Below are positions 7,795 through 11,264 of a stretch of DNA of 64,000 nt, piece by piece. The stretch lies in the NCBI GenBank assembly GCA_963695345.1, contig OY968769.1, positions 2,446,441-2,510,440 of the forward strand, given 5' to 3'. The translations under genes and the position numbers were made by a program. The stretch is from an uncultured Methanomassiliicoccales archaeon (GTDB taxonomy: Archaea > Thermoplasmatota > Thermoplasmata > Methanomassiliicoccales > UBA472). Under the pieces are notes generated by a model, which worked only from the letters and a program-made list of their open reading frames with translations, did no database searches and was not told where the DNA came from. How positions within the stretch are numbered: the first letter of the stretch is position 1; every line of letters begins with the position of its first letter.

Positions 7795-8007
7795 ATGGCA
7801 GAGACCCACCATGCGGTAGAGAAAGAGGAACCCTGTGACGTCGCAGGATGCGGAAAACCGGCCGAGAGGTCAATTTCGCAGAACAGCGCCCAAGAGGCAG
7901 GGCTCGCTGTCGATGAGGACCTGAAACGGGTCCATCTGTGCAAGGAGCACTACAAGTCCTACAAGAAAGCGACGAAGACTGAGAGAAAGATCGGCTCCAT
8001 ACGTTAG
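7795..8007 (+). CDS. small zinc-finger protein (hypothetical)
   Basis: 70 aa with CDVAGCGK...HLCKEHYKSYKK, a Cys/His-containing metal-binding-like motif. Confidence 0.4.
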   Translation: MAETHHAVEKEEPCDVAGCGKPAERSISQNSAQEAGLAVDEDLKRVHLCKEHYKSYKKATKTERKIGSIR

Positions 8008-8058: not shown

Positions 8059-9159
8059 ATGAAGGTCGCGTGGATCCAAGTTCTATCCAGCGCTGGGCTT
8101 TCCGGCTCCGCGTTGCTGATCCCGAACATGCTTCGGGGGGATTTTGGCGCCAACACCATCGAGATCGGCCTCATCACCGCAGTTTTCAACGCCGCCGTCT
8201 TCTCCTCCTCATGGATATTCGGCAGGGCCACCGACGTACACGGTAAAAGACGCATATTGCGGATGGGGCTGCTGATAACCTCCATCGCCCTTATCCTTCA
8301 GGTATTCGCCCACGACACCATGATGCTGGGCCTTTCCCGGATATTCGTGGGAATGGCCTGCGGCATCTATCCCTCCGCCCTGCTTTGCCACGTATACGAG
8401 AGCGACAAGAAGGTGGGCAAGTTCAGTGCCTTCGGCAGCCTGGGCTTCGGTGTCGGAACCTTCCTGGCAGGCGCCATCGGGATATATTACGGCATATTCA
8501 TCGTGAGCGGGGCCATGCTCTTCCTGGCGTTCCTCATCTCGCTCTATCTGCCGTTCCATGCGGAGCGTTGCCATAAGGTACCATATTTCCCGGCGAAGAT
8601 AATCAGGCGCAATTTCCCGGTGTACATTTCGGTCATGTTCCGGCATATCGGCGCCAACATGATATGGGTGGTTTACGCGCTGTTCCTGGCCGACCTGGGG
8701 GCGGACCCGCTATTCATCGGTCTGGTCTACGGCATCAATGCCGGGGCCCAGTTCGTTTTCATGAACTTCGTCGATCGTTTCGGGTCGAGGAGGCTGGTGC
8801 TCTTCGGGTTCATATTCTCCATGCTGACCTTCCCATCGTACACGCTGGCCACCAGCTACTGGATGATAATCCCGAGCCAGGTGATGATCGCCGCCTCGTG
8901 GTCCTGCCTCTATGTGGGCTCGGTCAAATACATCATGGAGCGGAACGAGGAGAAAGGGACCAGCGCCGGACTGCTGCAGTCCTTCCTCAGCATCTCGGCG
9001 ATCGCCGGGGCATTGATCGGAGGAATGGCCACCTTCAGCCTGGGATATCATGGGACCATGTACTTGGCCACGGTAATGGCCGTGCTGGGCCTGGTAGTGT
9101 TCTTCTTCAGCAACAAATGGATGGAGCGCCACGACGCAAAAGAGCTTAATGCATCATGA
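8059..9159 (+). CDS. MFS transporter
   Basis: Intact 366-aa ORF, 12-TM pattern with MFS-like loops (GRATDVHGKRRILRMG; DRFGSRRL). The 3' end (KELNAS*) lies inside the 25-bp direct repeat. Confidence 0.8.
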   Translation: MKVAWIQVLSSAGLSGSALLIPNMLRGDFGANTIEIGLITAVFNAAVFSSSWIFGRATDVHGKRRILRMGLLITSIALILQVFAHDTMMLGLSRIFVGMACGIYPSALLCHVYESDKKVGKFSAFGSLGFGVGTFLAGAIGIYYGIFIVSGAMLFLAFLISLYLPFHAERCHKVPYFPAKIIRRNFPVYISVMFRHIGANMIWVVYALFLADLGADPLFIGLVYGINAGAQFVFMNFVDRFGSRRLVLFGFIFSMLTFPSYTLATSYWMIIPSQVMIAASWSCLYVGSVKYIMERNEEKGTSAGLLQSFLSISAIAGALIGGMATFSLGYHGTMYLATVMAVLGLVVFFFSNKWMERHDAKELNAS

Positions 9160-9160
9160 T
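9136..9160. repeat. 25-bp direct repeat copy 1 (gcaaaagagcttaatgcatcatgat), putative att site
   Basis: Identical 25-mer recurs at 10252-10276. It overlaps the MFS stop codon. Confidence 0.8.
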
Positions 9161-9620
9161 TTGACTGGCTCAGGGGCTTCGGGGCAAGCTTGTCCATCGC
9201 TGCGGCAAGACGGTCCTCCGTCACACCGATATAGCACTTGAAGGTCGTGTTCGGGTTGTCGTGCCTCATCAGCAAGGCGATCGTCTCCAATTCTACACCC
9301 TGCTCCCAAAGCCGATATCCGAATGTCCTCCGCATGTCGCGGGGGCGGAACTTCACTCCTGACGCCTGCGAAATCTCCGCCACTTGATGCCTCGTCGACT
9401 TGGTTCATTGGCTTCGGGCCGAATTTCCCCGTCCACATGAGGAAGGTCCCGTTCGCCAGAAACTTCGCTGCCCGTAGCTCCATGGACTGCTCGATGTATG
9501 CCTTGGCGTACTTGTTTGCCTTCTGCCAGGCGACTTTCCCACCGTTCCTGCCCTTCCCCCGGATCATTGACCCATTCAGGGACAGGAATTCCAAGGCGTT
9601 CACCTGTGTTAGCCTGCACA
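9160..9620 (-). pseudogene. tyrosine recombinase/integrase, C-terminal catalytic fragment (N-terminally truncated, frameshifted)
   Basis: ALEFLSLNGSMIRGKGRNGGKVAWQKANKYAKAYIEQ, then after a frameshift RPRDMRRTFGYRLWEQGVELETIALLMRHDNPNTTFKCYIGV (R..HxxR..Y catalytic motifs). No N-terminal domain is present. Confidence 0.7.
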
Positions 9621-10004
9621 TGTCGACCGGACGCAACCAATATCATCGGAGCGGCACCGGGAACGCACTACCTCGACATCTCCGCCGACGGCAACTGGAC
9701 TGTGACTATCGAGCAACCGAGGACGAGCTCGGCTCCAGCAATACCGCAGACCCTCACAGGGACGAGCGACGACGCCAAGGCGGTCATGCTGACGTCCGGG
9801 GCGATCAAGTTCGACATGAGCTATATCGGGGACGGCAACTTCATCGACCTGGTTTACGACGCTGATGGTAATGCTGAGGGGTTGCTCGCCAACGAGATCG
9901 ATACGTACTCCGGATCGAAGTCCATCAGCGTGACGACGCCCGGGATACACTACCTCTACATCACCGGCATCGGCTCCTGGAGCATCACCGTCACGCATCT
10001 GTGA
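9498..10004 (+). CDS. fragment of a beta-rich secreted-type protein (hypothetical), inside the element remnant
   Basis: Only the distal part reads protein-like (THYLDISADGNWTVTIEQP...GIHYLYITGIGSWSITVTHL). The N-terminal part of the ORF is probably spurious. Confidence 0.3.
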   Translation: MPWRTCLPSARRLSHRSCPSPGSLTHSGTGIPRRSPVLACTCRPDATNIIGAAPGTHYLDISADGNWTVTIEQPRTSSAPAIPQTLTGTSDDAKAVMLTSGAIKFDMSYIGDGNFIDLVYDADGNAEGLLANEIDTYSGSKSISVTTPGIHYLYITGIGSWSITVTHL

Positions 10005-10251
10005 ATGGAATTTCGGGATAGCTCCAAACCTCAAATCTATCGACCAAAGTGGAGTTCCTGCTTCTTCAGGCCGTGCTTCCCGTTGAGGGCCGAATTGTCG
10101 GCAATTATGTACTCATCGCAGAAGTGACAGAGGTTGTGCTGTCTATTACCACAATGTTGCCCCGCCTTTGGTCAACACCGGCCATCTCCAAGAGTGAAAG
10201 GACCTGTTCCCGGACCTTGCCCCTTCCGTCCAATCCAGTCAGACGGACCGG

Positions 10252-10276
10252 GCAAAAGAGCTTAATGCATCATGAT
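10252..10276. repeat. 25-bp direct repeat copy 2 (putative att site)
   Basis: Identical to 9136-9160. Lies 14 bp upstream of the rnz GTG start. Confidence 0.8.
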
Positions 10277-10289
10277 ACGATGAGGGGCC

Positions 10290-11264
10290 GTGGAAATCGT
10301 CTTCCTTGGGACTGGAGGTAGCGTACCGACCAGAAATCGCAACACCAGCGCTACCGCGGTCCGGGTCGGGTCGGAGATATTGCTGTTCGATTGCGGTGAG
10401 GGGACCCAAAGGCAGCTGATGAGTTCCACCGTCTCCTTCATGAAGATCACCAGGATCTTCATCACCCATCTACACGGAGATCATTTCCTGGGCCTGCCCG
10501 GTCTGATCCAGTCGATGAACTTCGCCGGACGGCTGGAGCCTTTGGAAATCTACGGTCCGGAAGGAACATCGACCACCGTCGACACGATACTGAACCTGGG
10601 TTATTTCCAGGCCGGGTTCGAGGTGGTCGGCCACGACGTCGCTGACCTTGACGCAGTTCATGGAAAGGGCTATACGGTCAAGGCGGTAAGGACCGACCAT
10701 AGCATTCCCTCGTTCGGTTTCGTTCTCAGCGAGGATGTCCGGCCAGGTAAGTTCAACAAGGCGAAGGCGATGGAACTGGGGGTGCCCGAGGGCCCTTTCT
10801 ATTCCAAGCTGCAGTCCGGTTCCAGCGTCAATGTCGATGGCAGAACGATATCGCCGGAGATGGTCATCGGCGACCCCCGGCCCGGGCTCAAGGTGGCATT
10901 CTCCGGAGACACCAGACCGAGCGAGCATTTCATGGAATCGGTCCTGGGATGCGACCTGCTGGTGCACGAGGCGACCGCTGACGTCTCGTTGCAGGAGAAG
11001 GCGAAGGAATTCGGCCATTCCACCGCCCGGGATGCGGCCACCATCGCCCTGTTGGCCGGTGTCAAGGCCCTCTACCTGAATCATTTCAGCGGCAGGTACG
11101 AGGACGTCGGCCTGCTGGTGGATGAGGCCCGGGACATATTCCCGAACACCTTCGCCTCCGAGGACCTCATGGTCCTGCAGGTCAACTATGACGGGACGGT
11201 CACCTCAAAGCAGCTTCAGCACGTCCGAGCTGGTTATGATCCCGACGATCGAGCCCTTCCTTGA
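10290..11264 (+). CDS. rnz: ribonuclease Z (metallo-beta-lactamase tRNA 3' endonuclease)
   Basis: VEIVFLGTGGSVPTRNRNTSATAV, ITHLHGDHFLGLPGLI, VAFSGDTRP, LVHEATA. GTG start. The 3' end may be shorter than the ORF, which overlaps the convergent CBS gene. Confidence 0.85.
   Translation: MEIVFLGTGGSVPTRNRNTSATAVRVGSEILLFDCGEGTQRQLMSSTVSFMKITRIFITHLHGDHFLGLPGLIQSMNFAGRLEPLEIYGPEGTSTTVDTILNLGYFQAGFEVVGHDVADLDAVHGKGYTVKAVRTDHSIPSFGFVLSEDVRPGKFNKAKAMELGVPEGPFYSKLQSGSSVNVDGRTISPEMVIGDPRPGLKVAFSGDTRPSEHFMESVLGCDLLVHEATADVSLQEKAKEFGHSTARDAATIALLAGVKALYLNHFSGRYEDVGLLVDEARDIFPNTFASEDLMVLQVNYDGTVTSKQLQHVRAGYDPDDRALP

Follow-up and report, generated by a model that had tools for sequence, protein, structure and literature searches.

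A 1.1-kb insert between perfect 25-nt repeats at the 3′ end of a transporter gene in a Methanomassiliicoccales archaeon: the probable remnant of a site-specific integrative element

Introduction

What separates a major facilitator superfamily (MFS) transporter gene from the adjacent RNase Z gene, rnz, in an uncultured Methanomassiliicoccales archaeon (GCA_963695345.1), and how did it come to be there? The locus lies in a 64,000-nt stretch of contig OY968769.1 (positions 2,446,441 to 2,510,440), called the window here; positions are counted from its first letter. A first-pass annotation, made from the letters alone, had read the locus as the footprint of an integrase element that duplicated its target and was later mostly deleted. 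We present here a computational analysis of this insert and its relatives. With a probability of about 90%, positions 9161-10276 are the decayed remnant of a Methanomassiliicoccales site-specific integrative element, one that carried a tyrosine integrase, used the end of the MFS gene as its empty attachment site (attB), and has since suffered a frameshift, a histidine-to-arginine change and deletion.

Results

The 25-mer GCAAAAGAGCTTAATGCATCATGAT occurs twice in the window, at 9136-9160 and 10252-10276, both times on the + strand and with 0 mismatches, as the first-pass annotation had reported. Identity between the copies stops sharply at 25 nt on either side, and 1,091 nt lie between them. 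No third copy was found in the window with up to 3 mismatches allowed, and the expectation by chance is zero (0 matches in 100 dinucleotide-preserving shuffles). Within the left copy lie the final 7 sense codons of a 366-aa MFS open reading frame (ORF), followed by its TGA stop. The right copy ends 13 nt short of the GTG start of rnz at 10290, with 14 nt from the duplicated stop to that start. ORF calls thereby bear out the earlier statements that the left repeat supplies the MFS stop and that the right one lies close to rnz. The repeats and the genes that they touch are as follows.

8059-9159, + strand: MFS transporter gene, the target, 366 aa (ORF; Pfam MFS_1, 2e-34); its last 8 codons, stop included, lie within the attL core.
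9136-9160, + strand: attL core, the left 25-nt direct repeat.
10252-10276, + strand: attR core, the right 25-nt direct repeat.
10290-11264, + strand: rnz, encoding RNase Z of the metallo-beta-lactamase fold (Pfam Lactamase_B_2 and tRNase Z); directly after the MFS gene in genomes with an empty site.

A site-specific element is recognized by identical repeats at its two ends, one of them inside the target gene; here all 25 of 25 nt agree and the left copy holds the MFS stop. That copy is coding on both strands, giving AKELNAS* on the + strand in the MFS gene and HDALSSFA on the − strand in the integrase frame. The 10 closest MFS orthologs (83-90% identity, all from Methanomassiliicoccales) share the C-terminus HDAKE[LI]NA[SL]. 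The repeat is not a common motif. In a viral contig collection, 0 matches were obtained with the exact GCAAAAGAGCTTAATGCATCATGAT and 0 with a degenerate attachment-site (att) pattern; in metagenome contigs the degenerate pattern gave 12 matches, all from one unrelated gut organism of 36-38% GC, which we read as chance. Scans of the window and of the related loci L002-L005 found no tRNA gene, no Rfam family matched positions 8900-10500, and the base composition (G+C) of the insert showed no difference from that of its flanks.

The empty site that the first-pass annotation had proposed to look for is present in four related loci: L004 (GCA_942492955.1, a 2.55-Mb genome), L005 (GCA_036504055.1), L006 (a JGI metagenome) and L007 (a Logan assembly). 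Their MFS proteins are 87-88% identical to that of the window, and their MFS stop is followed by rnz after 14-15 nt (15 in L004 and 14 in L005). Each junction consists of the left flank of the window, a single core-like sequence (22/25) and the right flank of the window, so that in these related species the two flanks are joined through one core. The neighbors are the same on both sides: the gene order Rpe, 70-aa protein, MFS, rnz, helix-turn-helix (HTH)-CBS and S-adenosylmethionine (SAM) synthetase is common to the window and all four loci, with a Usp gene between Rpe and the 70-aa ORF called in L005-L007 and not in L004. None of the four carries a repeat-less spacer like the insert. The attB reconstructed from the window is CACGAC, the core and ACGATGAGG; the reconstructed joined form (attP) is GGACCGG, the core and TTGACTGG.

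A search with the repaired integrase remnant of the insert returned the intact relatives that the earlier reading called for, 268-301 aa long, among them P0001 (74% identical), P0002 (67%) and P0005 (56%). P0001 (298 aa) is encoded at 163-1059 of metagenomic contig L003, where small co-directional genes follow it. By blastn, L003 575-1079 matches the window from 9638 down to 9136 (74.4%, 508 nt), and L003 1063-1155 matches it from 10268 down to 10176 (83.9%). Common to both segments is the 17-nt GCAAAAGAGCTTAATGC, and through it L003 joins the two inner ends of the insert. This is the attP configuration, found in a related element; the insert is accordingly an element of the L003 kind opened at att. 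Read on the other strand, the L003 core is GCA AAA GAG CTT AAT GCG CAC TAG (AKELNAH*), in-frame, so the L003 element also brings a replacement MFS 3′ end. Together, the four empty sites and the L003 junction support the earlier view of a site-specific integrase element that duplicated its target and was then mostly deleted.

Further relatives show parts of the same arrangement. L024, which encodes P0002, has the int-to-orfA continuity of L003 with a different core. In L022 (P0093), int is followed by an HNH endonuclease gene and by homologs of two L003 ORFs, orfC (69%) and the one after it (35%). The int genes of L021 and L002 are intact and, as in the window, adjoin host genes at their 3′ ends. 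Alignment to the Pyrococcus recombinase XerA (4A8E) shows the full set of catalytic residues in intact relatives of 297-304 aa; the intact relatives also carry PF00589, and P0001 matches PHROG integrase families at 6e-26.

Three side observations concern these contigs. At L003 1055-1082, the integrase takes its TAG stop from the palindrome CTAG, which on the opposite strand serves as the surrogate TAG stop of the MFS gene; in the window, the MFS gene has its stop in the analogous palindrome TCATGA, but the integrase frame runs on through it. Over L003 163-1582, int and orfA overlap at the stop of the one and the start of the other, and orfB and orfC follow closely in an operon-like arrangement. 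Integration at att would cut this int-orfA-C operon between int and orfA, and orfA-C might perhaps be expressed from the excised form only. At 1-2500 of L002/L008, the 2.5 kb 5′ of the intact integrase P0005 are nearly without long ORFs and have no called genes.

The integrase gene of the insert is located next to the left repeat.

9161-9636, − strand: tyrosine-recombinase (integrase) pseudogene, catalytic domain only (PF00589, tblastn, three-frame translation and blastn to L003).
9386-9393, − strand: integrase frameshift site, approximate; common to P0004 from another sample, which has the same out-of-frame tail.

The first-pass annotation had described a catalytic-domain fragment whose C-terminus abuts the left repeat. 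The catalytic domain stands (27.1 bits against Pfam PF00589, equal to the cutoff); the description of its end had to be refined, in that the frame, running from 9636 to 9161, continues through the left repeat into the MFS antisense strand. The fragment is also frameshifted and has lost a catalytic His. It corresponds to residues 139-297 of P0001, the first ~138 codons being lost. With P0001 as the tblastn query, identity was 70-72%: residues 139-219 matched window 9636-9394 in frame −2, and residues 210-297 matched 9425-9162 in frame −3. The split over two frames places a frameshift at about 9386-9393, where 1 nt switches frame −2 to −3 between 'NQVD' and 'TRHQVAEIS'. The His of the HxxR motif is Arg in the window copy (RPRDMRRTF versus HPHDLRRTF, alignment A1) and is invariant in 27 intact family members. 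Among the intact relatives of alignment A2, R140, K166, H238, R241 and Y274 are invariant and H264 nearly so; the window copy, with Arg for H238, a frameshift and the first ~138 residues gone, lacks the residue set of an active enzyme. Judged from these changes, the gene is a member of the tyrosine-recombinase family by descent, yet a pseudogene, and the remnant is predicted to be unable to excise by itself.

The remainder of the insert comprises the following features.

9636-9641, no strand: internal deletion junction, with the integrase (−) and the beta-rich gene (+) head to head, both without their 5′ parts.
9639-10004, + strand: 5′-truncated gene fragment for a beta-rich extracellular domain, with the end of repeat 1 and the whole of repeat 2 of a two-repeat protein.
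10005-10104, no strand: unassigned 100-nt spacer from the beta-rich stop to the orfA remnant, with no similarity to genes of L003, L022 or L024 and no Rfam match.
10105-10251, − strand: orfA remnant, reading inward from attR; in the free form of the element, orfA comes first after attP.

The first-pass annotation had listed an integrase catalytic fragment, a beta-rich ORF and short debris. The first two hold; the debris includes a recognizable remnant of orfA at attR (57% identity to L003 orfA over 44 aa, E=6e-13). Three alignments stop or start at the deletion junction: P0004 equals the window at 100% only from its residue 24, ending at 9636; the L003 homology ends at 9638 (blastn); and residues 102-222 of P0159, a relative of the beta-rich fragment, align to the window from 9642 (tblastn). 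A 58-nt repeat internal to the fragment, at 9642 and 9924, is explained by what the fragment keeps of a tandem domain, namely repeat 2 in full and repeat 1 in its last part. This domain, ~115 aa long, was found in 1,842 representative proteins (exhaustive HMMER search, E≤1e-3), where it sits C-terminally in proteins of 200-680 aa, usually as a tandem pair. In full-length relatives the two repeats come after an N-terminal transmembrane segment (membrane anchor) or linker. Neither the fragment nor its family had a Pfam or PHROG match. Members of the family are secreted or anchored in the membrane, and some also have PKD or Big domains. Since synteny with the empty sites is exact on both host flanks, all that lies between the cores, the beta-rich fragment included, arrived with the element or was inserted later; the fragment would accordingly be cargo of the element or a later insertion into it.

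P0004, from a Logan assembly of ERR15459707, represents a longer sibling of the remnant. Its residues 24-183 are 100% identical to the out-of-frame product of the window, and its 23 extra N-terminal residues match those of intact integrases. The contig that encodes it is 3,178 nt long and has three more co-oriented genes. A longer copy with the same frameshift suggests that the frameshift is older than the large deletion behind the window junction. An ORF that spans the deletion junction is on record in the source genome only.

The Logan contigs also bear on the state of the population. Contig L001 (ERR10755943) has two mismatches to the window over 1,161 nt and ends at window position 9160, and the rnz contig of ERR15459707 starts at window position 10252. 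The P0004 contig ends 5 nt past the far edge of the core and 30 nt from its int-side edge, and 25+5 = 30 = k−1. Logan assemblies were built with 31-mers (k=31; PMC12424806), so a 25-nt repeat alone would not break these three contigs. An assembly would be expected to branch at just these core edges if two att forms with one common flank coexisted, and the contig ends suggest that occupied and empty alleles occur together.

In a profile search, 66 proteins related to the integrase were found at E≤1e-10, about 45 of them 35-50% identical. Clade proteins whose source names a taxon are all from Methanomassiliicoccales except P0123, a protein of a metagenome-assembled genome labeled Actinomycetia. 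By tblastn with P0001 against INPHARED and PLSDB, the closest phage and plasmid integrases are bacterial and at most 30% identical. Scans with alignment A1 found nothing in viral contigs and L002 only in genome contigs, with no complete close relative there. From these comparisons the integrase clade appears to be without prior description.

The kind of element was sought among the genes of the relatives. Pfam and PHROG searches of the element genes of L003, L021, L022, L025 and L027 gave no type-defining match; among the genes of L003, L022, L024 and L021, only an HNH endonuclease and a zinc ribbon were recognizable, the rest being ORFans. L027-L031 have integrases 36-38% identical to P0001 near the ends of 19-38 kb IMG/VR contigs predicted to be viral. 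In the 14 kb of L027 that were examined, a ParB-like protein alone was recognized, and viral hallmark genes, such as those for a capsid, portal, terminase or VP4-like fusogen, were not confirmed. The genes of contig L025 (JGI 3300048689, 16.2 kb) are co-directional; among their products are a 1,045-aa DUF2341 protein, an nSTAND3 NTPase and an integrase that shares 39% identity with P0001. This contig may represent the whole of a small element or virus with a host in the Methanomassiliicoccales.

Some observations concern the host genes. Directly 5′ of the MFS gene, at 7795-8007 (+ strand), lies the 70-aa ORF noted above; it is Cys-rich, is kept in position and length in L004-L007, and had no significant Pfam match. 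On the + strand of 9136-10300, from the MFS stop to the rnz start, there is no run of at least 4 T, and read-through transcription from the MFS gene across the insert to rnz is therefore conceivable. A promoter for rnz within the core was considered and set aside: the Shine-Dalgarno-like GAGGGG or AGGTGG before the rnz start, in the window and L004, argues for a leader.

Discussion

The history that we propose begins with a tyrosine integrase that would have recombined an attP overlapping the 3′ end of its own gene with an attB made of the last codons and stop of the MFS gene, by conservative site-specific recombination. The 25-nt common core would have been duplicated as attL and attR, and the integrated element would then have separated the MFS gene from rnz. 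The MFS gene would have kept its reading frame and stop because the element carries the same sequence; on this account its attP would have shared all 25 nt with attB. The integrase would then have gained its frameshift and the His-to-Arg change in HxxR, and one internal deletion, most likely, would have taken everything between integrase codon ~138 and the middle of the opposed cargo gene.

Several points weigh against this reading. An empty site of the same species was not recovered, and the attB examples are from relatives whose MFS proteins are 87-88% identical. The attP of L003 belongs to a related element, with an integrase 74% identical and a core that shares only 17/25 nt. No hallmark gene that would mark a virus, a plasmid or another type was found among the element genes of the relatives searched. 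We infer both the single deletion and the cargo origin of the beta-rich fragment. The allele polymorphism is read from contig ends.

Among the alternatives, one would have the remnant still alive, as a small non-autonomous element that is excised and re-integrated in trans by the intact integrase of a co-resident relative; this would explain the coexistence of alleles. Both 25-nt cores are perfect, intact integrases of close relatives that use the same core exist (L003), and in two samples the ends of the Logan contigs are compatible with mixed att forms. Strains that never received the element would explain the polymorphism equally well, however. No intact integrase of this family was found in the window by tblastn with P0001, arm-type sites or an accessory excision factor (Xis, or recombination directionality factor) may have been deleted, and the deletion derivative is on record in the source genome only. 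We consider trans-mobilization of this remnant quite unlikely. In a wider form of the idea, both the remnant and its longer frameshifted sibling would be mobilized in trans, and the MFS 3′ end before rnz would be an active hotspot, polymorphic at the population level, of an undescribed family of Methanomassiliicoccales mobile elements, in which integration splits an int-orfA-orfB-orfC operon that would then be expressed only from the excised circle; this, too, is unlikely, if a shade less so.

The repeats might instead be the target-site duplication of a transposon or insertion sequence (IS), a local duplication or a chance repeat, with the integrase fragment incidental. Transposons too have flanking direct repeats, but 25 nt far exceeds the usual target-site duplication. 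The insert has no terminal inverted repeats beside its direct repeats and no transposase, its sole recombinase being the tyrosine integrase. The int-core-orfA junction of L003 shows conservative site-specific recombination at this sequence, and a chance repeat has an expectation of zero. We regard these explanations as very improbable.

In archaea, the integrase gene of the pNOB8 type (type II) stays intact on integration, whereas that of the SSV type (type I) is split. A 'suicidal' integrase of the SSV type, with attP inside int, division into Int(N) and Int(C), and an N-terminal half lost by partition rather than deletion, would accommodate a frame that runs through the att core and the absence of the N-terminal half from the window, but it has next to no chance of being correct and is refuted by the architecture: int is not split to opposite ends, the core is at the extreme 3′ end after the whole catalytic domain, the int stop falls at or before the core in L003 and L024, the attR side bears orfA and no Int(N) fragment, integrase sequence continues directly upstream of the window breakpoint in P0004, and int is intact beside host DNA in L021 and L002.

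The decayed integrative element that we favor resembles the pNOB8 type in having attP outside the catalytic part, at the int 3′ end, and int beside one att site (L021, L002 and the window). It differs in its target, a protein gene and not a tRNA, and in a window core that overlaps the last int codons; the two are compared by architecture. The closest solved tyrosine recombinase is XerA of Pyrococcus abyssi (PDB 4A8E), whose two-domain layout and Arg, His-x-x-Arg, His and Tyr residues align with those of P0001 (E=2e-13) at low identity. XerA resolves chromosome dimers at dif; the enzyme here belongs to a mobile element, with a predicted action on attP and attB, and the window copy is a pseudogene.

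Integration at protein-gene 3′ ends is already known in archaea: of 68 thaumarchaeal elements, 14 are in such ends and 39 in tRNA genes (Krupovic et al. 2019, PMC6563490). These numbers agree with the remark of the first-pass annotation that protein-gene ends are the less common target. One of those elements supplies a new stop codon, and its site was validated by the empty site of a sister species (PMC6563490). A review of archaeal tyrosine recombinases and their classification lists protein-gene targets as well (PMC8371274). Thaumarchaeal elements such as NitEve-E2 (PMC6563490) share with the window a tyrosine recombinase, short direct att repeats and, as target, a protein-gene 3′ end whose last codons and stop are replaced or restored. 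The window core is 25 nt, in contrast to 13 nt in NitEve-E2; its host is a member of the Methanomassiliicoccales (Thermoplasmatota), its target is an MFS gene, and its 1.1-kb copy has a dead integrase; the comparison is one of architecture. In bacteria, integrative genetic elements target and preserve the 3′ ends of conserved genes, as here (Mageeney et al. 2020, PMC7192596); the window differs in its archaeal host and in a distinct integrase clade (at most 30% identity to INPHARED and PLSDB phage and plasmid integrases).

The observation made in the first-pass annotation is real, and its interpretation as a decayed integrative element at a protein-gene 3′ end is supported. Integration and later decay have left a textbook footprint here, which is a feature of an ordinary kind and leaves general understanding unchanged. 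For the organism and its relatives, the locus marks the MFS 3′ end directly upstream of rnz as an integration hotspot and points to a small uncharacterized clade of tyrosine integrases, with about 45 proteins in the public collections searched. An integrase of this clade could be tried as a genetic tool. The mobile elements of Methanomassiliicoccales are poorly known, and the set of attB, attP, attL and attR sequences would help in finding intact ones.

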